DNA of 64,000 nucleotides from Acidimicrobiia bacterium (GTDB lineage Bacteria > Actinomycetota > Acidimicrobiia > Spongiisociales > ZC4RG35), in NCBI GenBank assembly GCA_028285585.1, contig JANQOU010000008.1, positions 116,298 through 180,297 of the forward strand, in the 5' to 3' direction. Made by a program: the position numbers and the translations under genes. Below are positions 7,858-41,160 of the stretch, in pieces; the stretch's first letter is position 1; each line of letters begins with the position of its first letter. A model generated the notes under the pieces. It did no database searches. It was not told the DNA's origin and worked only from the letters and a program-made list of their open reading frames with translations.

Positions 7858-8836
7858 CGAGCTTCTCGGGCTCCTCGAAGAGGTTCAGCGGTGCGAGCAA
7901 CGCTCCCATCGCGAAGTAGAGCGTGTCGAAGTTGTGCACTCTGATGATCGACGACACGTCGGTCTCCGATGCGTTGAAGTGCTGATGCCATGCCCAGTGA
8001 TCGACGATCACCAGGTCGCCGGCCTTCCAGTCGACGCGCTCATCGTCGATGACGCTGTAGCCCTCGCCTTTGACGCAGTACAGCCATGCCTCGCCCCCAT
8101 GCCGGTGCTTCGACTGGTATAGCCCCGGAGCCAATTGGTGCATCACCGCCGTGATTCCGCCTGTCGTGTAACCGAGCGATGAATCGACGAGGAAGCCGCT
8201 CCTGGCTCCCCGTGGGGTCACCCGGAATGGGACGTCTTCGTACGGAGTGAGGATGCGCGTCTCTGACGCGGCAGTCTGCAGGTCAGACAGCCGGCTCACA
8301 CGACGCGAATAGGGGTCCGCGCCGAGCATCTGTGCCGCTGACAGGGCCCCGCCCTGCAGGTCCTCGAATGGCGTGTCTCCGCCATCTTCGATGGTTGCGA
8401 GCCCGAGCAACTCAACCAAAGGCTGAACACTGAAGGTGACATACCTTGCGGGCGTGGGACCCGATCCGCCATGACGATGCCACTGGCCTCCCGGGAGGTA
8501 GACCGTGTCCCACGGGCGCCAGTCGTAGCGGCGACCTTGCACCTCGGTCCAGCCAGTGCCCTCGATGATGAACATGATTGCGTCCCACGAGTGCCGGTGG
8601 ATGGTGGAAACGGTGTCGGGCTCGATCGAATGCAAGTTGGCGTCGAGATTCAGACTGGGGACGTCCCCATCGGCGCTCACCATCACACCCCTCTTCATGC
8701 GCCGGGGGGTGTCGACCATCTCGACAGACTCTTCGGTGATGATGGTCCGCTGGTTGTCCTTCCAGAACTGAAGCCAGTCGGAACGGCGAAGCTTCTGCAC
8801 CTCGTAGTGCGATGTGGTCGTTCTCGTTTTCGCCAT
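7793..8836 (-). CDS. Bicupin protein (gentisate 1,2-dioxygenase-like fold)
   Basis: Two cupin motifs (HRHSWDAIMFIIEG...WHRH and HRHGGEAWLYCVKG...WHQHFN). ATG at 8836 preferred over ORF-track 8944: GGAGG 7 nt upstream and no overlap with the MFS gene. Confidence 0.75.
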   Translation of the reverse strand: MAKTRTTTSHYEVQKLRRSDWLQFWKDNQRTIITEESVEMVDTPRRMKRGVMVSADGDVPSLNLDANLHSIEPDTVSTIHRHSWDAIMFIIEGTGWTEVQGRRYDWRPWDTVYLPGGQWHRHGGSGPTPARYVTFSVQPLVELLGLATIEDGGDTPFEDLQGGALSAAQMLGADPYSRRVSRLSDLQTAASETRILTPYEDVPFRVTPRGARSGFLVDSSLGYTTGGITAVMHQLAPGLYQSKHRHGGEAWLYCVKGEGYSVIDDERVDWKAGDLVIVDHWAWHQHFNASETDVSSIIRVHNFDTLYFAMGALLAPLNLFEEPEKLDAPPNVESIEWPDVDQGRPDA

Positions 8837-8871
8837 CCCGAACCTCCAGATTTGGCGCCGTCTCGTTGACG

Positions 8872-8884
8872 GTATACCGAATAC
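8872..8884. promoter_or_regulatory. Operator-like site GTATACCGAATAC (copy 4, weaker)
   Basis: Between MFS stop (8886) and bicupin start (8836); 10 of 13 positions match the motif. Confidence 0.35.
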
Positions 8885-8885
8885 C

Positions 8886-10097
8886 TTAGTCGGAAGGGAT
8901 CCGGCTTCGAGCCCGCCAGGCCAGGGGAAGGATGACAAGGACAAAGACGGTGGGAACGAGGATGAACATCGCTTGGAATCCGACCCAGGCAGCCACGAGA
9001 CCGCCCACCGCAGGACCGGCGATCCGCCCGGCGTCGTAACCAGCGCCGATCAAGGCGGCAGTGGCGCTGGCGCTCTCCGGCTCCGAGTGCTCCATTGCCT
9101 CGGACATCGTCCCCACTCGCAGCAGTCCCCGACTTGCGCCATTGGGCACCCACAACAAGAACTGAATCGGATAGATGGGAATCGAACCGATCAGACCGGT
9201 GGTAACCGCGTTGATCAGGTAGAGGGGGATGAAAGCCACGCCGAAAGCGACCCTCGTGAAGATCGCTGATGAGAAGAACCGGATCACGGCGGAGACAGCC
9301 GAACGCGAGCTGGCCAACAGCCCGATTTGGCCAAGCCTGAATCCAAGGGAAAGACCGAGCAGCTGGAAGAACGTGTTCAAGATCGCATTTGCGGTGTTGA
9401 GGTAGAAGCCTGTCAAAGCGGCCACCCAGGCCGTGAGAGGAGCGTCCTTGAACCTGCCGAGGTCGATCTTCCGGTTCGATCGATCCTGGCCGACCGGCAC
9501 GGCCGAGTCACGCAGCAGGGCAACGCCGATCAAGGCTGCAACTCCGAAGATTGCTGCGTGAACTCTCATGCCTGTTGCCGGGCCGAGAAGGCCACCGAGC
9601 ACCCCGGCCACCGCCGGCGCAAGGGTCCTACCGATCCCTTCGACACCCACATAGAACCCGATCACCGCCGTCGCCGTACGACGTCCTCGATCTTGAAGGA
9701 CGAGTGTGAGCAGAACTGTCGAAAGGATGCCCCAGCCGATCCCGTGGATGGCCATGAGGATTGTGAACACACCTATCGACGACGTGTATGTGATCGCAAC
9801 CAAGGCCGCCGTGCTGATCAGCGCGCTGAACCCCACTGTGAGCCTGACCACCGTGGTCTGAAAGCTGATTCCGACACCCAGTCGGGAGGCCAGCGCCGCG
9901 GCACCGAAAATCGACAGAGACAACCCAATCGCGCCCACAGCGGTTCCTTGCTCGGCGAGATACACGGGGGCGAGGAATCGAGCTCCACCCTCCCCGATGC
10001 TCAACGCCAGGATCATGGCGAGGAGCAGCGCACCTAGCCGGCCAAAGCCCCGCAGTTGCTCTCGAAGCTGATCCCAGCGGGTTGCCCGATCACTCAT
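8886..10097 (-). CDS. MFS transporter
   Basis: 403 aa, about 12 hydrophobic segments, MFS loop motifs. Confidence 0.8.
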   Translation of the reverse strand: MSDRATRWDQLREQLRGFGRLGALLLAMILALSIGEGGARFLAPVYLAEQGTAVGAIGLSLSIFGAAALASRLGVGISFQTTVVRLTVGFSALISTAALVAITYTSSIGVFTILMAIHGIGWGILSTVLLTLVLQDRGRRTATAVIGFYVGVEGIGRTLAPAVAGVLGGLLGPATGMRVHAAIFGVAALIGVALLRDSAVPVGQDRSNRKIDLGRFKDAPLTAWVAALTGFYLNTANAILNTFFQLLGLSLGFRLGQIGLLASSRSAVSAVIRFFSSAIFTRVAFGVAFIPLYLINAVTTGLIGSIPIYPIQFLLWVPNGASRGLLRVGTMSEAMEHSEPESASATAALIGAGYDAGRIAGPAVGGLVAAWVGFQAMFILVPTVFVLVILPLAWRARSRIPSD

Positions 10098-32961: not shown

Positions 32962-33000
32962 TTACACGATACTTATAACGTGTAATAGAGTTCGTGTCAA
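32962..33000 (-). promoter_or_regulatory. Promoter-operator module B (TTGACA -17 nt- TATAAG with palindrome TTACACGATAC-TT-ATAACGTGTAA)
   Basis: Same geometry as module A: -35 at 33000-32995, -10 at 32977-32972, palindrome 32962-32985. Upstream of the small ORF and antiporter. Confidence 0.6.
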
Positions 33001-33111
33001 GTGGTTTGTCGGTCAACAGGCTCATGAAGGGCGCGGATCTTCGTAACCCGACACCACAGCCCAAGGTCTTACTCACCACAGGATTCCCTCGCCACCAGGA
33101 GTGCCACACCA

Positions 33112-33681
33112 ATGACAACAGCAGTGATAGCCGGCCGCGCCCTTCCCAGCTCGCGTGCCATGTCCATCTTCCTCGTCGTGGTCGCTGCCGGCCTGACAGC
33201 CCTTGCGGCCCAGTGGCGCATCCAGCTCCCCTTCACTCCCGTCCCCATCACTGGCTCGACTTTCGCCGTGCTGCTCACCGGCGCCGCACTCGGTTGGCGT
33301 CTCGGTGGCCTCGGGCAGCTGCTCTACTTGGGGATCGGCGTGGCCGGTGTCCCGGTGTTCACAAACGGCACAGGGGGCGTCGAAGTCATCAGGGGTGCGA
33401 CTGGCGGGTACATCATCGGCTTCGTGCTCGCTGCTGCTGCCATCGGATGGCTTGCAGAGCGGCGGCAAGACCGGACCTTCTCAGGCATGTTCACCGCCTT
33501 CCTGGCTGGCTCGGCGATCATCTACATCTGCGGAGTGATCGGGCTCATGGGTGCCACCGGGTGGCCCGTGGCCCAAGCCGTGGAGAACGGTGTCGTGCCC
33601 TTCCTGCTCGGCGACCTGGTCAAGGCAGGGGCTGCCGGGCTGCTGCTCCCGACAGCCTGGCGCTTGCTGGCCAACGACTGA
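33112..33681 (+). CDS. bioY: Biotin transporter BioY
   Basis: 189 aa, BioY blocks (VPITGSTFAVLLTGAALG, GATGGYIIGF, PFLLGDLVKA). Confidence 0.9.
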   Translation: MTTAVIAGRALPSSRAMSIFLVVVAAGLTALAAQWRIQLPFTPVPITGSTFAVLLTGAALGWRLGGLGQLLYLGIGVAGVPVFTNGTGGVEVIRGATGGYIIGFVLAAAAIGWLAERRQDRTFSGMFTAFLAGSAIIYICGVIGLMGATGWPVAQAVENGVVPFLLGDLVKAGAAGLLLPTAWRLLAND

Positions 33682-33746
33682 GCGTTGAACATCTAGGTCT
33701 GGCAAGTCTCGGCTGATTCAACACGCCCGCTGATACGCCTAGGTAT

Positions 33747-33785
33747 CCACAACTTGGAGGCACTTTAGGCTGGAGCAAGTTGTGG
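33747..33785. terminator. Inverted repeat between convergent bioY and avidin-like genes
   Basis: CCACAACTTG ... CAAGTTGTGG, 10-bp arms, 19-nt spacer; no clear U-tract. Confidence 0.3.
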
Positions 33786-33798
33786 CGAACTCCCGCTT

Positions 33799-34233
33799 TT
33801 AAGCGTCCACAGGAGCCGGCGGAGAGGAGGCATGGCCGCGCTGTTGCGCCTTTTTGACTGCTTCCGGGGTTGGAGCAAGGCGCGTAAATATGTCCTGCCC
33901 GACCTTGGTCGCCTGCCAGTCGTCTTGTGGTGCCATCTCACTGACCAGGAACCAGAATGCTGAGATCTCCTCTGCTCCAGATTCGTCAATTTGGTACTGA
34001 CCTGCCCACGCCGTAGTCGAGTGCGCATTTCCGTACGAGTTGACCCAAGTCACAGCCCAAGCACAGGACTGGCCACCAGCTGCGGGAGCGGTGTTGAAAC
34101 GACCTACCAATTGGTAGAAGTCCTTGGCATCTCCAACAGCTGACGAGTATTGCCCGGACAACTGACCGTCAGAAGCGGCGATCCTCATCATCGACCCAAG
34201 CTCGTTATGCCAAACACCAGAAATATCAGCCAC
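33799..34233 (-). CDS. Avidin/streptavidin-family biotin-binding protein, no signal peptide
   Basis: Colinear with core streptavidin: WHNELGS, GQYSSAVGD, WAVTWVN, NAHSTTAWAGQY, FWFLVS, DDWQATKVGQDIFT. GTG start with GAGGTG upstream; in-frame TGA four codons upstream. Confidence 0.85.
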   Translation of the reverse strand: MADISGVWHNELGSMMRIAASDGQLSGQYSSAVGDAKDFYQLVGRFNTAPAAGGQSCAWAVTWVNSYGNAHSTTAWAGQYQIDESGAEEISAFWFLVSEMAPQDDWQATKVGQDIFTRLAPTPEAVKKAQQRGHASSPPAPVDA

Positions 34234-34270
34234 GTCAGCACCTCAACTCGCTAATTGATCTATCACATAG

Positions 34271-34298
34271 CTATTTGTACGTGAGGTCTCTTCACTTC
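34271..34298 (-). promoter_or_regulatory. Shared promoter-like motif GAAGTG-N14-ACAAATAG (copy upstream of avidin-like gene)
   Basis: Minus-strand reading; ACAAATAG ends 37 nt before the GTG start. Confidence 0.4.
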
Positions 34299-34505
34299 AT
34301 GTCGGTCAAGCCGAGTTGCGTACAAGATGTCGGCCAGGTTGCACCTAAACTGGGACAGGCCGGCCTCAGCGTCGATGAAAGGGGCGAGTCGACCGGCCTG
34401 TCCCATCCAGTTCTTTGTCCGGAGACAACTTCTTCTTTCGATGCAATAGATCGGCGACTCGAGACAAATAACTGGTTGGTTAGAACCGTCGATGAAGGGG
34501 GACCC

Positions 34506-35036
34506 ATGTTTGGCGTGCTCACGTCAATCGCACTCGTACTCTCCAGCACTGCTGCGCCAGCTGCCGACAGGCCCGCAACCCACGATGACGTTCACTGTGT
34601 CACCTTCGTTGTTGGGCAAGAAGAGGATGGCCAGCTGATCCTCACAGAGCCCGAATGCTTCAGGCATGAGGCTCATGCTCAGCTATGGGCTCTTGTTGGC
34701 TTGCAACAGCCAGCCTTCACCTTCAGCTCCTTTGGGAGCTTTGGCGGTGGCCTGACCGCCTTCTCTTCAATGACGCTCGGTAAGCACTACTCCGGATCCA
34801 ACGGCACGGGCTCATCGATCACAGTGGTGGGATCGTCGTGCACTGGCGGTTATTGGAACACATGGACATCGTGGGACAACAGAATCTCTTCGTCCTACAA
34901 CGGCTGCGCGAGGCTGCGGCACTATGACCTGCCCAACAAGGCCGGGACGAGCCAGAACACCTACGGCGCCGGCACGACCGACAACCTCACCTACATGAAC
35001 AACAGGACCGAGTCGATTTCGTATCACTCCAGCTAA
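34506..35036 (+). CDS. Secreted hypothetical protein
   Basis: ATG 34506 (GAAGGGGGA upstream) gives signal-like MFGVLTSIALVLSSTAAPAA. C-terminal Cys/Trp/Asn-rich domain (WDNRISSSYNGC...MNNRTESISY). The ORF-track TTG 34275 extension looks non-coding. Confidence 0.6.
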   Translation: MFGVLTSIALVLSSTAAPAADRPATHDDVHCVTFVVGQEEDGQLILTEPECFRHEAHAQLWALVGLQQPAFTFSSFGSFGGGLTAFSSMTLGKHYSGSNGTGSSITVVGSSCTGGYWNTWTSWDNRISSSYNGCARLRHYDLPNKAGTSQNTYGAGTTDNLTYMNNRTESISYHSS

Positions 35037-35145
35037 GTCGCATGAGTTCCACCTAGTCCCAAACCCGGAGGTTCACTCGGACAAGTCAGACGCCGACATC
35101 ATTCTCGCCTCGATCGATCGTCCGTCCGAATTCGGGGCCATCTTC

Positions 35146-35664
35146 TTGCGGCACTACGACCGCGTGTATGCCTACGCAGCGAGACGTACCGGACGCTCAG
35201 AATCCGAGGACATAGCAGCTGAGGTCTTCGTCACGGCCTTCAAGATCCGGCATCGCTACAACGCGAGCCACCCCAACTGCCTGGCCTGGTTGCTGGGCAT
35301 TGCCCGCAACACGGTCGGCGACAGACTTCGGGCAACAAAGCGACGTGACCGCATCTACCTTCGGCTACAGGGCGACACAACGCCACTCATGTCTGAAGAG
35401 GCGGATGGGCGTCTCCTCGCCGCTTCTCTGAGCAAGCCGCTGAACGATGCCTTGCGGAAGTTGTCGACGAACGATCGCGAAGCCTTCCTCCTATACGCCG
35501 TCGACCAGCTCACATACTCAGAGATCGCTGTGACACTTGGGGTTCCCCAAGGAACCGTGGGGTCGCGAATCACTCGCGCCAGGCGAAAGATCGGTCAAGT
35601 GATCCCCAACCTGCAACAAATCAGTGGGCGAATGGGAGACGACATGGAGGCAGGTGGTGCCTGA
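35146..35664 (+). CDS. ECF-type RNA polymerase sigma factor
   Basis: Region 2 (RHYDRVYAYAARRTG...EDIAAEVF) and region 4 HTH (LTYSEIAVTLGVPQGTVGSRITRARRKI). TTG start is the first canonical start; sigma-like sequence seems to continue upstream. Confidence 0.85.
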   Translation: MRHYDRVYAYAARRTGRSESEDIAAEVFVTAFKIRHRYNASHPNCLAWLLGIARNTVGDRLRATKRRDRIYLRLQGDTTPLMSEEADGRLLAASLSKPLNDALRKLSTNDREAFLLYAVDQLTYSEIAVTLGVPQGTVGSRITRARRKIGQVIPNLQQISGRMGDDMEAGGA

Positions 35665-36634
35665 GCGACAGCATCGCCTCGACCGCCTGATCCGGATCGT
35701 TGCCGGCACTCCCGTGGCCAGCCGCGCCGCACGCGATCAGGCCGAACGAGACCTTTCAGCGGCCATGAGCTCTCCACCTGTAGTTTCGCCACGCCGACCC
35801 ACCCTGCTGTTGGGGCTCTTGACACTGCTCGTGCTGGTGGTCGTTGTCTTCCTGGTTCAAGCTGCAAGCTTCAGCCCCGCCGCGGCCACCATCAATCAAC
35901 TCGCCGAAATCGCTGAACAAGTTGGGCCTGTTGAAGCCCGGGACGCTTCCTTCGTGTACACCAGGTCGACAACAGCCAGCCTGGTGGTGATACCCAAGGA
36001 AGGCCTTCGAGGTGTGTCGTACGACTCGGATCACCTCGTGTACGAAGAGCGAACGATCCGCGAGTCCTGGATAGGAACCGACGGCACGGTCCAGATCTCA
36101 ATCACAGTCCTCGACCCAATGTTTCTGTCCGACAACGACAGGGCCACCTACTACGCGGCCGGCATCAACGAGCAGGATCAAGTGGGAGAGACAGTCACCT
36201 CCACAATCAGCCAAGCAGAAGACGTCGTATGGCCGTCCGACCCCAACTCTCTCGACGAGGTCATCCGCCGGCATCTCGCTAACGAAAGCGACCTCCCACA
36301 GGCAGTGAAATACCTGAATATGGCTCTCGGCATAATCCGAGAGTCTCATGCCTCGCCAGACCTGCGAGCTGCGACGATGCGACTAGTGGGCACTCTCGAT
36401 GACCTCGAGCTCCTCGGAGTAGACGACGCCGGCACGGCCACGTTCTCAATCAGTTTCGTCGAGCAGGGAATCGACAAGACACAGACCTTCAGCCTCGACA
36501 CCTCCGGCTATGTCCGTCTAGAACGGACCACCAGGGTGGCGGATGATCCGACGTTCGGCATCCCCGCCCAAACTGTGGAGTCGCAGTGGATCTCAGAGCA
36601 ACCTCGCCTCGTGTCGACGCTCGACTCTCCGTAG
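35624..36634 (+). CDS. Single-pass membrane protein downstream of ECF sigma (putative anti-sigma factor)
   Basis: Overlaps sigma gene end (alternative GTG at 35657); one TM (LLLGLLTLLVLVVVVFLV); large extracytoplasmic domain; gene order typical of sigma/anti-sigma pairs. Confidence 0.6.
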   Translation: MGEWETTWRQVVPERQHRLDRLIRIVAGTPVASRAARDQAERDLSAAMSSPPVVSPRRPTLLLGLLTLLVLVVVVFLVQAASFSPAAATINQLAEIAEQVGPVEARDASFVYTRSTTASLVVIPKEGLRGVSYDSDHLVYEERTIRESWIGTDGTVQISITVLDPMFLSDNDRATYYAAGINEQDQVGETVTSTISQAEDVVWPSDPNSLDEVIRRHLANESDLPQAVKYLNMALGIIRESHASPDLRAATMRLVGTLDDLELLGVDDAGTATFSISFVEQGIDKTQTFSLDTSGYVRLERTTRVADDPTFGIPAQTVESQWISEQPRLVSTLDSP

Positions 36635-36654
36635 CGGCCACGAGTCGGCCAACC

Positions 36655-36682
36655 GAATAGAAGCCGAGGCTTGGACAAATAG
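36655..36682 (+). promoter_or_regulatory. Shared promoter-like motif GAATAG-N14-ACAAATAG (copy upstream of papain-fold gene)
   Basis: ACAAATAG ends 18 nt before the TTG start at 36701; GGAGGTGG lies between. Confidence 0.45.
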
Positions 36683-36700
36683 TCGGGTGGAGGTGGAACT

Positions 36701-37576
36701 TTGAGTGTCCAAGTTGCTCTCGACATTTTCAGCGGAAGACCCAACCCCACAGTCACCCTCGAAGGAAGGGAGGCGGCTTCTCTGCTCGAGCGAGCCCAGC
36801 CAACTGTCCGGATCGAACTAGACGAATCCCCTACACCTCCGCCAACTCTGGGTTACAGGGGAATCCTCATCGACCAAGACGAGACAGCTGACCTGCCGCG
36901 CCTGAGCCGCATTCGCGACAACCGCCTCTTTGGGGCCGGCCTCGCTCATCATGCGCGCGACGAGAGCCTCGAAGAATTCTTGATCAGCGACGAAGGCCCC
37001 TTTGCCCAAACCGAAACCGGGATTGAGGTGCTATCCGACCTCAGCGAGCTGCGAGACAAGGCTCTGACCACTGACTGGTCTGACTGGTCCTGGCTAGATG
37101 ACATCATCATCCCCCCATGGCCGGCTCCGTGTAAGTGCGGGCCGATCTATGAGCCGTCATGGTGGAACGTCCCAAGCCGCCAGCCTTATAACAACTGTTA
37201 CAACTATGCGACCAACTATCGGACCGACACCTTTGCGCAGCCTGGCCGAGCCAACGGAGCGATGTACAGCTCCCTCACCTGCAGGTCCGTTCAGCCGGCT
37301 GCAGTCGCCGACAAGCTCATCGAGTCACCTGACGCTGACAATCGGTGCCCTGAAGAGGGACACCTCGTCGCGCTTGTCGTCTGGCCTGGTGGGGACTACC
37401 ACTGGTATCGGAAGGGTGAGGACGGTTGGTGGACTCACAAGCCTGGCAGTACCGCCGTGACCAACCTGGACAACTCCGGAAAGAAAATCGTCGACCCGAG
37501 AACAGCCGACCGAGGCCCATACACTGAGTTCTGCACCTTCATGGTGGTCATGCATGGGCACATCAAGATCGGGTAA
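36701..37576 (+). CDS. Two-domain protein: N-terminal SGRPxP...LGYRG domain + C-terminal papain-fold (protein-glutaminase-like) Cys/His/Asp domain
   Basis: C-domain blocks YNNCYNYA, GHLVALVVW / GWWTHKPG and KKIVDPRTA recall protein-glutaminase DGCYARAH, WSYHVAILV, KRIIDPSLF. No signal peptide. Confidence 0.6.
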   Translation: MSVQVALDIFSGRPNPTVTLEGREAASLLERAQPTVRIELDESPTPPPTLGYRGILIDQDETADLPRLSRIRDNRLFGAGLAHHARDESLEEFLISDEGPFAQTETGIEVLSDLSELRDKALTTDWSDWSWLDDIIIPPWPAPCKCGPIYEPSWWNVPSRQPYNNCYNYATNYRTDTFAQPGRANGAMYSSLTCRSVQPAAVADKLIESPDADNRCPEEGHLVALVVWPGGDYHWYRKGEDGWWTHKPGSTAVTNLDNSGKKIVDPRTADRGPYTEFCTFMVVMHGHIKIG

Positions 37577-37901
37577 CTGGACAGCAACGGCCCACCTGCA
37601 CTCTGGCCGCCCGGACCCGGCTTGGACAGTCCCAGAACAGCAGGCTGTGGAACTCATCAATAAGTGGCAGGGTCTGCCTACGGCAGCCTCCTCGTCATCG
37701 CCGGGCAGCCAACTCGGCTATCGCGGAGTCAGTCTCGCGGGACCGGGCGAAGAGACATGGACTGCGGAACGAGGTGTGGTGACCAAGACACACAGCGGGG
37801 GCCACCGGAAGGATGCAGGACGGGAATGGGAACGTGCCCTGCTCGAGACTGCACCCCAAGGACTTCTTCCACCCGTCGATCTGTCGGACCGGTCAGCTTG
37901 A
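37554..37901 (+). CDS. Stand-alone paralogue of the N-terminal domain of the preceding protein
   Basis: HSGRPDPAWTV...SQLGYRGVSL...GHRKDAGREWERALL parallels FSGRPNPTVTL...PTLGYRGILI...HHARDESLEEFLI; overlaps upstream gene by 23 nt. Confidence 0.55.
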   Translation: MGTSRSGNWTATAHLHSGRPDPAWTVPEQQAVELINKWQGLPTAASSSSPGSQLGYRGVSLAGPGEETWTAERGVVTKTHSGGHRKDAGREWERALLETAPQGLLPPVDLSDRSA

Positions 37902-37956
37902 ACTGGGCACCTGGGCGACTGTCGGCAGCAACACACGCCAGCCGAAGCACACAAGG

Positions 37957-39006
37957 CTATTTGGTGCTGATTGTGTAGCCGTCTCCGGGTGTGGCGACAA
38001 CTGGTGTCGTCTCACCGTGAGGGACAACTTCGATAGGCGTCTTCTTCGACAGCGTCCCAGACACTTTGAACTCGATCCGAGTAGTGGTCCACAAAGAAAC
38101 AGTGACACTGCCCTTGCCGAATGACAATGTGCCTTCTGGCATCGGTAGATACGAGCCCTCTATGGCATACGTCGTCCCGGGAACGAGCGCCGTCGGCGCT
38201 GGCTCAGTCGATCCACCAGTCGTGTACACGCCAGTGATAGTTGGCGTCCGTTGGAGGACAGACTGAAGCCACGAGACCAACTGGTTGTAAGCCGGATTCG
38301 ACTCCGCTGAGTCCAGGTCTGTCGCATACTCGCGAATGAACGTGGGGGTGACAAAGAGGTACGTGTCCTTGTGGAGTTGCCACGTCGTGTGCACTGTCTC
38401 TTCCTTGAAGCAGGGGCCGATCTTCAAATACTGCTTGTTGATGTCGACGTCGGCGTAGACCACCAATGCACTGACTATTGGCATGCCGAGCAGGTACTCA
38501 CAGACGAAAACGATGTTGGCGACTTTGCTATCCACAGAGGAGTGGGACTCGCTGATCGCCAAACCCTCCCGGCCGAGAGAAGCCACCATGGCTGACGCAA
38601 AAGACATCTCGCCGGCACCTGTGGCCAACCCGAGTAGCGCCTCGATCATCTCCTTCGAGAAGTCCATCCCGAAGCTGCTGGACTTGTACGTGACGTCCTC
38701 TTCCGTCACGTGGACGAACAGGCCGGATCCACTGATGACGTTGTTGAGAGCCGTGTAGTTGTAGATCGAATAGGGCTTCTTGGTGACCGGGTTGATAGTC
38801 GTCGAGATCGCCTTGGTCATCGCAGCGAAGAAGACCGAAACCTCGGCAAAGATGTCTTGCACCGACTTCTCGATGGGCTCGTTCGAGTCGACAGTGCTGG
38901 AGATCATGATGTTGCCGGTCTCGTTGAAGATGTAGTACTTCGTTGCCTCGAGATTGTGCGGGTCTCGAGATGGGACCTTCAGTGGCGTGGACTTTGTTTC
39001 AGCCAT
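37957..39006 (-). CDS. Hypothetical 349-aa protein: unknown ~260-aa N-domain + C-terminal beta-sandwich-like tail
   Basis: AGGAG 7 nt upstream of ATG; no signal peptide or TM; no family recognised. The last ~90 aa (TITGVYTTGG...IEFKVSG...) look Ig/IPT-like. Confidence 0.6.
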   Translation of the reverse strand: MAETKSTPLKVPSRDPHNLEATKYYIFNETGNIMISSTVDSNEPIEKSVQDIFAEVSVFFAAMTKAISTTINPVTKKPYSIYNYTALNNVISGSGLFVHVTEEDVTYKSSSFGMDFSKEMIEALLGLATGAGEMSFASAMVASLGREGLAISESHSSVDSKVANIVFVCEYLLGMPIVSALVVYADVDINKQYLKIGPCFKEETVHTTWQLHKDTYLFVTPTFIREYATDLDSAESNPAYNQLVSWLQSVLQRTPTITGVYTTGGSTEPAPTALVPGTTYAIEGSYLPMPEGTLSFGKGSVTVSLWTTTRIEFKVSGTLSKKTPIEVVPHGETTPVVATPGDGYTISTK

Positions 39007-39077
39007 CGGATCACTCCTAGATCGCCCGTGTAGACCAATCGGGTGCCGATGCGCGTCGCAACCGGCTCCTCACTCTT

Positions 39078-39105
39078 CTATTTGTCTGCCGTCCCAAGAT
39101 CATTG
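39078..39105 (-). promoter_or_regulatory. Shared promoter-like motif CAATGA-N14-ACAAATAG (copy upstream of 349-aa gene)
   Basis: Minus-strand reading, about 70 nt upstream of ATG 39006. Confidence 0.35.
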
Positions 39106-39140
39106 CGACCTATGGAGAAGCTGGTGAGATGGAGGCACTG

Positions 39141-39392
39141 CTAACAGTCAGGCAAGTTGTCGAGATTGTTTGAGTGGGTGCCATCAGCGACGGTCTTCAG
39201 GTGCCCGTCAATGGTCACATACACCTCGGTGTGAGTCCCGGCCTCGTCCACGAAGTACTTGTGCAAACCACTCTTTATGTCGCTGACGGCATCTGCCTTC
39301 GATCTCGGCGACCACAACTCCCCCGTGTTGCACAGAGCTGTGATGTCACCATCTGGATCCTTGCCCGTCTGTCGTACTCGTCGCTCGGCCAT
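39141..39392 (-). CDS. DUF3892-domain protein
   Basis: 83 aa; GDITALCN...WSPRSKADAVSDIKSG...NNLDNLPDC matches my memory of DUF3892 proteins. Confidence 0.7.
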   Translation of the reverse strand: MAERRVRQTGKDPDGDITALCNTGELWSPRSKADAVSDIKSGLHKYFVDEAGTHTEVYVTIDGHLKTVADGTHSNNLDNLPDC

Positions 39393-39419
39393 GAGACACC
39401 TCCTCGTCGTCCCAAACTC

Positions 39420-39447
39420 CTATTTGTCGAGTGTCGAATCGCTATTC
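39420..39447 (-). promoter_or_regulatory. Shared promoter-like motif GAATAG-N14-ACAAATAG (copy upstream of DUF3892 gene)
   Basis: Minus-strand reading; ACAAATAG ends 27 nt before ATG 39392; GAGGAGG lies between. Confidence 0.45.
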
Positions 39448-39611
39448 ACCCAAGTGGCTTGGGGGCATCCAATGACACGCACATGCGACCACGGCCGCCG
39501 TCGCCTCCCTCTCGAGATCGAATAGGACTGCGGTCTCTGAGAGAACCTCCAGGAGCGAGGCCATACCCCAATTCCGGGTCTGGTGAGCAAGCGACAATTC
39601 GATGGCGTTCC

Positions 39612-40304
39612 CTAGTCGCAGGCGATCGCCCGGTCGATTCCTTCGAGCAGCAAATCGAGCCCGAACTCGAAGGAGTCACCGAAGTCGTACCCGGGCTTCA
39701 TCACATGCTCCTGACTGAGCTCAGCAACGTGCGGATATTCCGCCAGGAAGTCGCTCTGGTCCATCTCAGCAGCGATGTCCGCCATGTCCTTGTCCCCTGA
39801 CGGAAGGGTGGATTCTTCGAACGCGAAGCCGTAGACGAAGCTGTCCAGGATCGCGTAAGCGTGAGCAGTCAGCTCGATCGAAAGCCCTCCCCGGCGAAGA
39901 CAGCCGATCACAGCGTCGTGATGACCAAGATTGGCGGGACCGGGCACGGGCCTCGACTCCATGAGTGGTGCCGCCCAAGGATGCCGTCCCAAAGCAGCCC
40001 TCGCCGACAGGCAGCGCCTGCGAATTGCCGTCTTCCAGTCTTCGTCCTCAGATGGCAGCTCGATCTCACCGAACACCACTTCCACCATCCCGTCCACGAT
40101 CTCGTCCTTCGACGAGAGGTAGTGGTAGATGTTCATCGGGGCCACCCCGAGTGCGGTTGCCAGCTTGCGGATCGTGAAGTCCTCCATGCCGCTCACGTCC
40201 GCCAGATCCACTGCCGCTTTGAGGATGCGCTCCCTGGTCAGCTCCCTGGTCAGCTCCCTGCTCTTCTTCGTTCCTATCCCGGCTTTTCCTTGTCGAGTTG
40301 ACAT
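39612..40304 (-). CDS. TetR-family transcriptional regulator
   Basis: HTH FTIRKLATALGVAPMNIYHYLSSKDE plus TetR C-terminal domain. ATG 40304 preferred over 40334, which would run through the operator. Confidence 0.9.
   Translation of the reverse strand: MSTRQGKAGIGTKKSRELTRELTRERILKAAVDLADVSGMEDFTIRKLATALGVAPMNIYHYLSSKDEIVDGMVEVVFGEIELPSEDEDWKTAIRRRCLSARAALGRHPWAAPLMESRPVPGPANLGHHDAVIGCLRRGGLSIELTAHAYAILDSFVYGFAFEESTLPSGDKDMADIAAEMDQSDFLAEYPHVAELSQEHVMKPGYDFGDSFEFGLDLLLEGIDRAIACD
40231..40260. repeat. 12-nt tandem repeat (tccctggtcagc x2.5) inside tetR
   Basis: Encodes RELTRELTRE near the N-terminus. Confidence 0.85.
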
Positions 40305-40305
40305 A

Positions 40306-40320
40306 TCGTACTTAGTACGA
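40306..40320. promoter_or_regulatory. Perfect 15-bp palindrome TCGTACTTAGTACGA (TetR operator candidate 1)
   Basis: Immediately upstream of tetR start, in divergent region. Confidence 0.65.
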
Positions 40321-40338
40321 ATACGGTGTCGCAAGTAA

Positions 40339-40353
40339 TCGTACTAAGTACGA
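40339..40353. promoter_or_regulatory. Perfect 15-bp palindrome TCGTACTAAGTACGA (TetR operator candidate 2)
   Basis: 33 nt from copy 1; differs only at the central base. Confidence 0.65.
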
Positions 40354-40419
40354 ACATCCCTCGAGGAGAGACGAAATGAACATCATCACCACATCGGGAA
40401 AGACATCCGGAGCCCGGCG

Positions 40420-41160
40420 ATGACCGCCTCCACCACACACAAGGCCGCCGGGTCACTTCGGCCATACGCCGTGATTGCCGGGGTCGGGTACGTCCTCTTG
40501 TTCGTCTTGGGCGTGTTCGCCAACTTCTTCGTGCGAGAGAGCTTGATCGTGTCGGGTGACGCTGCGGCCACCGCCGCGAACATCACCGATTCGATCGGCC
40601 TGTTCCGGGCCGGGATGGTCGCCTTCGCCGCGATCTTGGTGATCGATGTCATCGTGGCTTGGGCTCTCTATGTGCTCTTCAAGCAGGCGAACGCCCACCT
40701 GTCACTGCTCACGGCCTGGTTCCGGATCGTCTACTCCGTGCTCCTCGGCGTGGCACTGGTCTTCTTCTTCCAAGCCCTCCAACTGCTCCAACACGATGCA
40801 TTCACAGACGTCTTCACCACGGATCAGCTGAACGCCCAGGCACTCGTGGCCCTTGACACCTTCAACTCGACGTGGCTGATCGGACTGCTCACATTTGGTG
40901 TGCATCTGGTACTGCTCGGCCTGCTTGTGGTCCGCAGCGGGATCACAAGCAGGACTCTCGCTGCCGTGCTGATGGTGTCGGGCGCGGCGTATGTGATCGA
41001 CACAGTCGCACACGTATTGCTCAGCAATTACAACGACTACGAGACCTTGTTCGTGACGATCGTCGCCATCCCATCGATTCTCGCTGAGGGCTGGTTCGCC
41101 CTGTGGCTGCTGCTTCGAGCCGGCCGGAGCCAGGACGGCGCCCACACGGAGCGGTCCTGA
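40420..41160 (+). CDS. DUF4386-family membrane protein
   Basis: 246 aa, about 6 TM, N-terminal pattern typical of DUF4386; divergent from tetR. Confidence 0.65.
   Translation: MTASTTHKAAGSLRPYAVIAGVGYVLLFVLGVFANFFVRESLIVSGDAAATAANITDSIGLFRAGMVAFAAILVIDVIVAWALYVLFKQANAHLSLLTAWFRIVYSVLLGVALVFFFQALQLLQHDAFTDVFTTDQLNAQALVALDTFNSTWLIGLLTFGVHLVLLGLLVVRSGITSRTLAAVLMVSGAAYVIDTVAHVLLSNYNDYETLFVTIVAIPSILAEGWFALWLLLRAGRSQDGAHTERS

Follow-up and report, generated by a model that had tools for sequence, protein, structure and literature searches.

The sigma factor islet and its repeated motif

A 64,000-nucleotide stretch of an Acidimicrobiia bacterium genome (contig JANQOU010000008.1, positions 116,298 to 180,297), referred to here as the window, was analyzed around an islet at 33.8 to 39.4 kb that combines the gene for a sigma factor of the extracytoplasmic function (ECF) type, a putative anti-sigma factor gene, and a repeated two-block motif. 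Pfam and NCBIfam assignments together with the public gene calls of the contig gave the gene order BioY, avidin-family gene, a gene for a 176-amino acid (aa) protein, ECF sigma gene, a gene for a 325-aa protein, a 291-aa gene with an overlapping 115-aa gene, a 349-aa gene, a DUF3892 gene, and a TetR gene. The 176-aa gene (34506..35036, plus strand) heads the sigma operon and codes for a protein with a hydrophobic N-terminus and a C-terminal beta-gamma-crystallin domain. A 253-aa open reading frame (ORF) running from a TTG at 34275 was discarded as an ORF-calling artefact whose first 77 codons span the intergenic promoter and hairpin described below, the real start being the ATG at 34506.

The sigma gene (35071..35664, plus strand) codes for a protein of 172-197 aa with the Pfam domains Sigma70_r2 (E 2.5e-12) and Sigma70_r4_2 (E 1.9e-17). 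Consisting of the sigma-2 and sigma-4 domains only, without region 1.1 or 3, the protein falls among the ECF (group 4) factors, and it scored 86 bits against the NCBIfam sigma70-ECF superfamily model (cut-off 42.9). None of the curated NCBIfam equivalog cut-offs (SigE, SigM, SigK, SigW, RpoE, BldN, and others) was reached, with best scores of 52-74 bits against cut-offs of 185-265. This was the only ECF sigma gene in the window, as the first-pass annotation of the sequence had claimed. The conserved N-terminus (EVHSDKSDADIILASIDRPSEFGAIF) reached back to about 35068 and aligned with homologs starting M-EVHS. The codon at the start position was GTG in one close relative (L004) and CCG both in the window and in a 98.5%-identical strain (L166), and the first canonical start was the TTG at 35146, such that the factor encoded here would either use a non-canonical start or lack approximately 25 N-terminal residues. 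The following gene (35657..36634, plus strand) codes for the 325-aa putative single-pass membrane anti-sigma factor, an assignment drawn from synteny in 49 loci and from a transmembrane segment read from the sequence. Its start overlaps the end of the sigma gene, with GGAGG at 35646 and a GTG start at 35657; the protein matched the NCBIfam CU044_5270 family at E 3.5e-14, below the cut-off, and no anti-sigma Pfam domain was found in it.

The octamer ACAAATAG occurred exactly four times in the window, at 34271-34278 (-), 36675-36682 (+), 39078-39085 (-), and 39420-39427 (-). The window search thereby reproduced the four copies of the first-pass annotation, each ahead of a gene and in its orientation, and placed all of them 18-71 nt upstream of a same-strand start codon with a Shine-Dalgarno sequence. 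The accompanying estimate of about two copies by chance was too high, because 100 dinucleotide-preserving shuffles of the window contained 0.25 copies on average and two at most, never four. A hexamer was indeed present exactly 14 nt upstream of every copy; the order in which these hexamers had been given was wrong, and the correct assignment is GAAGTG for the avidin-family gene, GAATAG for the 291-aa gene (then labeled papain-like), CAATGA for the 349-aa gene, and GAATAG for the DUF3892 gene. Sites were compared in a fixed register, an ungapped MAFFT alignment of the four having misaligned them. Likeness was confined to the two blocks and both spacers and flanks were unrelated; the copies are therefore not a dispersed repeat.

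Allowing one mismatch added ACAAATAA at 34464-34471 (+), with CAATAG 14 nt upstream. When the entire window was scanned with a position-weight matrix, five sites scored 20.5-26.9 bits, followed by two of 16.2 and 12.8 bits, both of which were conserved in orthologous loci. The seven top matches all lay in the islet and the remaining matches scored at most 12.4 bits, so that the earlier scan, by its own description non-exhaustive, had recovered four real copies and missed three weaker ones (34444, 35596, and 34411). The five strongest matches were intergenic and on the strand of the downstream gene. They comprised P_avidin (34271..34298, minus strand; GAAGTG-N14-ACAAATAG, 37 nt upstream of the avidin-family GTG start, 20.5 bits); P_sec (34444..34471, plus strand; CAATAG-N14-ACAAATAA, 35 nt upstream of the 176-aa ATG, 25.0 bits), an autoregulatory promoter-like site; P_pap (36655..36682, plus strand; GAATAG-N14-ACAAATAG, in the 66-nt gap between the anti-sigma and 291-aa genes, 26.9 bits); P_349 (39078..39105, minus strand; CAATGA-N14-ACAAATAG, 71 nt upstream of the 349-aa gene, 22.0 bits); and P_DUF3892 (39420..39447, minus strand; GAATAG-N14-ACAAATAG, 27 nt upstream of the DUF3892 gene, 26.9 bits). 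Distances to the start codon in this set likewise spanned 18-71 nt. A promoter scan found no sigma-70-like promoter in the region. The 98.5%-identical strain had the same layout with every motif block intact, and single-nucleotide differences fell at 39430, in a spacer, and at 34270, beside an octamer.

The cassette and its motif in related loci

Homologs of the sigma factor were rare, and the closest genomes were metagenome-assembled genomes (MAGs) of Acidimicrobiia. A metagenome scan with the 176-aa protein supplied 80 loci that, with the window and five earlier loci, made a set of 86 examined by tblastn; the related loci apparently belong to Acidimicrobiia. The order 176-aa gene, sigma, anti-sigma was kept wherever the contig was long enough, with the first gene present in all 86 loci, sigma in 80, and anti-sigma in 49.

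The motif upstream of the operon was found both in the window and in orthologs whose sigma factors were 35-77% identical (77% in L004, 53% in L002), and in the orthologs the best upstream match preceded the start codon of that operon's leading gene by 25-65 nt. The pair GAATAG/ACAAATAG was kept in the loci closest to the window (L002, L004, and L088), and more distant loci carried forms such as GAACCA-N14-GCGAATAG and GAACCC-N14-ACGAATAG. A family consensus from 27 sites read GAAC(C/A)G-N14-(G/A)C(G/A)AATA, also written GAAC-N16-(G/A)C(G/A)AAT, and the spacer was 14 nt in nearly every case. Forty-one loci had 400 nt or more of upstream sequence; in these, plus-strand matches above the control 99th percentile were concentrated at -80 to -41 (29 matches), with two at -120 to -81, one further upstream, and none in the first 200 nt of coding sequence.

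The -35 element is taken to be GAAT/GAAC and the -10 element CAAAT/CGAAT, such that the family consensus has the form of a typical ECF-type promoter with GAAC at -35, and the window would carry an AT-rich variant of it. The sequence features that mark an autoregulatory ECF promoter, namely an AAC-type -35 element, a short -10 element, and fixed spacing, were all present. The first-pass annotation had proposed a dedicated promoter class tied to the central ECF sigma/anti-sigma pair, and this is strongly supported by the comparative evidence of an autoregulatory position in orthologs, an ECF-type consensus, and a motif that travels with the cassette into unrelated genomic settings where no other regulator is present. 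GAATAG-N14-ACAAATAG is, on the whole, probably the lineage-specific promoter of the ECF sigma factor encoded at about 35.07-35.66 kb.

The sixth match of the window scan, P_anti (35596..35623, plus strand; CAAGTG-N14-ACAAATCA, 16.2 bits), lies in the 3' end of the sigma gene itself. Of 53 unique sigma genes, 35 carried a motif of at least 9.3 bits (control 99th percentile 7.6 bits) at 5-47 nt ahead of the stop codon. It occurred in two reading frames, encoding ELIPDLEQI-type and RNLIxxxDES-type peptides, with peptide tails that were otherwise divergent, and the constraint is therefore on DNA and not on the peptide. In the window, the GGAGG and the GTG of the anti-sigma gene lie downstream of P_anti at a fitting distance. 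These features moderately favor a working internal promoter that would give the anti-sigma gene its own sigma-dependent transcript.

Clustering the ORFs downstream of family-type sites over the 86 loci recovered the 176-aa gene in 39 loci and the anti-sigma gene, via the internal site, in 26. DUF3892 was found in six loci, in one of which (L006) it adjoined the cassette, and a 69-aa Cys-rich protein likewise in six loci; the remaining clusters comprised two to four ORFs or single ones. The avidin-like gene, the 291-aa/115-aa pair, and the 349-aa gene were accessory members restricted to the lineage of the window. The 69-aa protein (YVNKNPQTNGDHEVH...NGCYYC...CH), encoded at approximately 8720-9060 (-) in L002 and in five other loci, has no counterpart in the window.

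The divergent hairpin and the predicted circuit

The seventh match, P_as (34411..34438, minus strand; AAAGAA-N14-ACAAAGAA), scored 12.8 bits in the window scan and 11.9 bits with the family matrix. This divergent promoter-like site stands back-to-back with P_sec, the two -35 elements being 5 bp apart, and reads directly into a GC-rich hairpin. With the family matrix trained on plus-strand sites only, 27 of 44 unique loci had a minus-strand site above the control 99th percentile (7.6) at this place. The divergent and plus-strand sites of a locus were of matching type, and in 19 of 21 loci they agreed at position 4 of the -35 element (Fisher p 8.5e-4, with no correction for phylogeny). Locus L147 carried GAACTC-N14-ACGAAT on both strands, and in L108 the two -35 elements together formed GGTTCCGGGAACC.

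The hairpin, a predicted small RNA (34347..34410, minus strand), has a 12-bp core stem in which 34352-34363 pairs with 34393-34404, a minimum free energy of -36.8 kcal/mol, and a z-score of -2.7. The stretch at its apex (34370-34384), CCCCUUUCAUCGACG when read on the minus strand, is antisense to the region in which ribosomes would bind ahead of the 176-aa gene, and the predicted target CGTCGATGAAGGGGG (34487..34501, plus strand) covers the Shine-Dalgarno sequence of that gene. The loop is a near-duplicate of 34487-34501, and the two are the only exact matches to GTCGATGAARGGG in the window. Four close loci shared a strong hairpin with a near-copy of the 176-aa ribosome-binding region in its loop, placed between the operon promoter and the divergent neighbor. 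A same-strand duplicate of 10-15 nt of the ribosome-binding stretch, about 125-170 nt upstream of the start codon, was present in 22 of 44 unique loci, and the reverse-complement control of this longest-common-substring test never exceeded 9 nt. The duplicated stretch varied among lineages and matched within each locus, with at least eight types (e.g., CCGTCGATGAAGGAG, GCGACCTGTGGAGG, CACCGATGGAGGA, TTGGAGGGTGGC, and GCGGTTGAGGA). Hairpins started a median of 4 nt after the octamer, were approximately 50-80 nt long, and presented the antisense stretch at the apex; the median z-score over 31 unique sequences was -3.2, and stems differed in length and sequence among lineages. A search of Rfam 15 gave no match at E up to 1 on either strand of 33000-40500. 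A small upstream ORF starting from the ATG of the loop copy was also considered and was rejected, with lengths of 5-24 codons and no conservation. The sequence thus has what is expected of a masking small RNA: a promoter-type site of its own, a stable structure, no conserved ORF, and a seed complementary to a Shine-Dalgarno region.

These data tilt toward a hairpin that is made as a minus-strand RNA and represses translation, i.e., a sigma-dependent anti-Shine-Dalgarno small RNA. Several observations weigh against it. Stem G-U pairs numbered 52 for the minus and 44 for the plus strand, which does not settle the strand, and mismatches between loop and ribosome-binding site were wobble-compatible in 19 cases and A-C in 18. 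Duplex energies over long regions differed modestly between own-locus and cross-locus pairs (-35.3 and -29.6 kcal/mol), a less clean separation than that of the longest-common-substring test, and some loci showed neither the divergent site nor the duplicate. The minus strand had no U-tract terminator, and ACAAA-type lineages were T-rich after the hairpin on the plus strand. In locus L168 (2300-2490), the hairpin with CCGTCGATGAAGGGG in its loop was kept and the target was partly deleted (aaccgtc---tcgtATG), which could be target decay, an assembly error, or a different start codon. The strand is thus assigned from the promoter alone, because the RNA-based strand tests did not discriminate and the U-tract was absent.

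The same observations fit an explanation in which the promoter is correctly identified and the hairpin is not a regulatory RNA, serving instead to separate the divergent units as a transcriptional insulator or terminator, to act as an element of the plus strand, or to provide a pair of DNA operators, with the likeness of loop and target arising from local duplication without pairing function. In its favor, folding is about as good on one strand as on the other and the wobble tests do not separate the two, the plus strand of ACAAA-type lineages is T-rich after the hairpin, the minus strand has no U-tract, and the L168 loop outlasted part of its target. However, the T-rich tract of ACAAA-type lineages is replaced by ATTCGC in GCGAAT-type lineages, tracking promoter type and not any need for a terminator; it is therefore not the tail of a plus-strand terminator, and the hairpin with its T-tract was rejected as an intrinsic terminator of that strand. 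A promoter-type plus-strand match upstream of the hairpin was present in just one of 41 loci, which also counts against this explanation. Neutral copies would not be expected to persist as stretches that vary among lineages in at least eight types, yet match per locus and lie at the apex, and a protein operator would need a co-evolving protein, of which the cassette encodes none. A hairpin without an RNA role is accordingly unlikely, although more probable than the remaining alternatives.

Regarding the factor that reads the motif, the -35 elements of the window are degenerate (GAAGTG, CAATGA, and AAAGAA), ACAAAT differs from the usual CGT-type ECF -10 element, and the activity of the sigma factor in this strain is uncertain because its conserved N-terminus has no canonical start codon. 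All three points count against the explanation favored here. The reader of the motif could instead be an ECF sigma factor encoded elsewhere, the part of the genome examined being 64 kb, or a transcription factor such as the TetR protein (39612-40334), given that the AATAG half-sites recur at 22 bp, a spacing that direct repeats for a response regulator could have. Nevertheless, some 40 unique loci had the motif together with the sigma cassette irrespective of the neighboring genes, including loci without a TetR gene, and the sigma factor was the only evident DNA-binding protein travelling with the cassette. The two-block, fixed-spacer, and strictly oriented form with GAAC at -35 is that of a promoter, and a site upstream of the sigma operon itself is what ECF autoregulation predicts. 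Recognition by another factor is therefore improbable, and it is very likely that the sigma factor of the cassette reads the motif. Finally, the copies could be seen as leftovers of a short dispersed repeat, or as clustered by chance, without regulatory role. Their confinement to 5.2 kb and a somewhat lower flanking GC content, as in acquired DNA, might suggest this, but the view is effectively refuted by the restriction of likeness to two blocks, the failure of all 100 shuffles to reach four copies, and the conservation of position, spacing, and orientation in distant orthologs.

Taking the predicted sigma-dependent promoter and small RNA together, the following circuit is proposed. Release of the sigma factor by the membrane anti-sigma factor would allow sigma-bearing RNA polymerase to start transcription at seven sites within 5.2 kb. 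From P_sec, the operon coding for the beta-gamma-crystallin protein, sigma, and anti-sigma would be transcribed, resulting in positive autoregulation, and four accessory units (avidin-like; 291-aa plus 115-aa; 349-aa; and DUF3892) would be switched on from their own sites. The weaker site in the sigma 3' end would yield a separate sigma-dependent anti-sigma transcript, and the weaker divergent site a short transcript containing the hairpin of approximately 50-80 nt. By pairing with the Shine-Dalgarno region ahead of the 176-aa gene, its apical loop would block translation and perhaps destabilize the mRNA, and this pairing would act as a built-in post-transcriptional brake for the sigma factor. 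The chances are about even that modules of this apparently Acidimicrobiia type share a three-promoter core read by their own sigma factor, comprising the operon promoter, a divergent anti-Shine-Dalgarno small RNA with a co-evolving seed, and a promoter in the sigma coding tail. If true, the core would make up a self-contained circuit that pairs positive feedback with negative feedback on two levels, RNA and protein. Full-text literature searches returned no ECF operon with a back-to-back sigma-dependent RNA against its own ribosome-binding site, an absence that is no proof of novelty.

The module resembles the autoregulated ECF operons RpoE-RseA of Escherichia coli, SigW-RsiW of Bacillus subtilis, and SigK-RskA and SigL-RslA of Mycobacterium tuberculosis in having a sigma factor limited to the sigma-2 and sigma-4 domains, a putative anti-sigma factor of the single-pass membrane type that would be transcribed together with it, a predicted cognate promoter on its own operon, and a predicted small local regulon. 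We take the family -35 element GAAC(C) to resemble SigL-type promoters and the -10 element (G)CGAAT to resemble SigK-type promoters. Unlike these operons, the module adds a conserved first gene for a presumably secreted beta-gamma-crystallin protein, an extra motif within the sigma coding sequence, and a divergent motif ahead of a predicted hairpin RNA; its sigma factor reaches no curated equivalog cut-off, and the window has the derived AT-rich motif GAATAG/ACAAATAG. In the features that can be judged from sequence, the module looks like an ECF sigma system with a putative anti-sigma factor, outside the named equivalogs.

For the predicted small RNA, the closest functional likeness is to MicA, RybB, and MicL of E. 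coli, which depend on Hfq. These sigma-E-dependent small RNAs, whose targets are porin and Lpp mRNAs, act as the repressing branch of an ECF regulon, such that an activator-only ECF sigma factor gains repression through small RNAs that block target translation (PMC8103513). MicA, RybB, and MicL are encoded elsewhere in the genome, whereas the RNA predicted here would be encoded back-to-back with the sigma operon promoter and would target the first gene of that operon with locus-specific complementarity. The type I toxin-antitoxin loci IstR-1/tisB, OhsC/shoB, Orz/Zor, and AgrB/dinQ have divergent, non-overlapping, cis-encoded small RNAs, and here too the predicted small RNA gene adjoins its target, would be transcribed away from it, and has a short local duplicate complementary to the target 5' untranslated region. 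The target is nevertheless different, being a 176-aa presumably secreted protein of beta-gamma-crystallin fold that heads a sigma operon and not a hydrophobic toxic peptide of less than about 60 aa, and both promoters would be of the same alternative-sigma type. Gram-positive bacteria also have small RNAs with C-rich loops, including 6C RNA in the Actinobacteria and RsaE in the Firmicutes. As in these, a C/U-rich apical loop of a GC-rich hairpin would pair with a G-rich Shine-Dalgarno region, probably without Hfq; in contrast, there is no sequence or Rfam relationship, a single hairpin is present, and the loop extends locus-specifically beyond the anti-Shine-Dalgarno core. Lastly, the small RNA UdsC interacts with rpoHII mRNA in Rhodobacter sphaeroides and is similar in that a small RNA meets the mRNA of an alternative sigma factor (PMC9779115). 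UdsC differs in its origin, a 3' untranslated region, in acting on a sigma factor of the RpoH type, and in not being encoded divergently from the sigma promoter. The predicted small RNA belongs to neither the sigma-E repressor arm nor the type I toxin-antitoxin group.

No family of alternative sigma factors is larger than that of the ECF factors and, to our knowledge, most ECF groups have no known promoter, regulon, or signal. A previously uncharacterized ECF group, apparently of uncultured Acidimicrobiia, would hereby gain a promoter consensus, a conserved crystallin-domain partner, and a small variable regulon, which in this genome is predicted to include a cytoplasmic avidin-like protein encoded beside a biotin transporter and a member of the widespread, unstudied 291-aa family. 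The preservation of a motif in two reading frames where the sigma gene ends clearly exemplifies constraint on coding sequence at the level of DNA. If the hairpin is a sigma-dependent anti-Shine-Dalgarno RNA, it would represent a compact self-limiting route for an activator-only regulator, and the co-varying seed/target pairs would be material for compensatory mutation and for orthogonal synthetic circuits. The promoter and regulon would belong to a known type of system, and the three-promoter core with its self-targeting small RNA would be a new form of it.

Accessory genes and mobile contexts

The 176-aa protein is presumably secreted, because its hydrophobic N-terminus is read as a predicted signal peptide. 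Its AlphaFold2 model had a predicted local distance difference test (pLDDT) score of 82.5, with values above 90 over residues 88-176. In Foldseek, the C-terminal half matched Protein S (1nps), clostrillin (3i9h), and a beta-gamma-crystallin domain of Flavobacterium johnsoniae (3hzb) with probability 1.0 and target TM-scores of 0.62-0.73. The predicted model accordingly shows the double Greek-key fold of the beta-gamma-crystallin superfamily; against Pfam Inhibitor_I36, the protein reached E 0.19 only.

The avidin-family gene (33799..34233, minus strand), a predicted regulon member, codes for a 144-aa protein without a signal peptide that matched Pfam Avidin at E 6e-28 and scored 123 bits against the NCBIfam streptavidin model, below its cut-off. 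At 33112-34233, this signal-peptide-less gene with its sigma-type promoter adjoins the BioY biotin-transporter gene, and a cytoplasmic biotin binder under ECF control is unusual. The 291-aa gene (36701-37576, plus strand) belongs to a widespread uncharacterized family with 3035 matches, at 55-65% identity across distant phyla. NNCYNY and several His residues are invariant in this family, and Cys166 and several His residues did not vary among 34 homologs of its product. No significant Foldseek, Pfam, or PDB match was found for this protein, whose AlphaFold model was poor over residues 135-219, and the papain fold ascribed to it earlier was unconfirmed by structure prediction and fold search. 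The overlapping 115-aa gene (37554-37901, plus strand) encodes a paralog of the N-terminal domain of the 291-aa protein (E 1e-5). The 349-aa gene (37957-39006, minus strand) is a predicted regulon member downstream of P_349, and neither the 349-aa nor the 115-aa protein had a significant match in Pfam, PDB, or NCBIfam. The DUF3892 gene (39141-39392, minus strand) lies downstream of P_DUF3892.

The islet had been described as horizontally acquired and lower in GC content than its flanks. With GC contents of 0.556-0.629, its genes did fall below most genes of the left flank (0.57-0.67), all being at or below 0.60 except the 115-aa ORF; the right flank was equally low and GC content at third codon positions overlapped that of the flanks, leaving the difference marginal. 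Acquisition of the islet was not borne out: the window contained no tRNA, no integrase was found within 10 kb on either side of the islet, and there was no clear compositional break. A compositional break together with mobility genes or a border tRNA, by which genomic islands are recognized, was thus missing, and the 98.5%-identical strain had the same layout. Searches of plasmid and phage collections matched only DUF3892, the one islet gene with plasmid relatives at the DNA level (Clavibacter and Paracoccus, 70-75% identity). In L006, a locus from an Acidimicrobiia MAG, the cassette has the gene for a 77%-identical DUF3892 protein as its immediate neighbor.

Two related loci presented a different context. 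Both L002 (13700-19700) and L168 (6000-10200) have a phage-type integrase and an excisionase-like HTH_17 gene next to the cassette, joined by a TrwC relaxase in L002 and by an AAA_25 protein in L168. Judging from these neighbors, the cassette evidently rides integrative mobile elements in the L002 and L168 lineages and would be mobile there.

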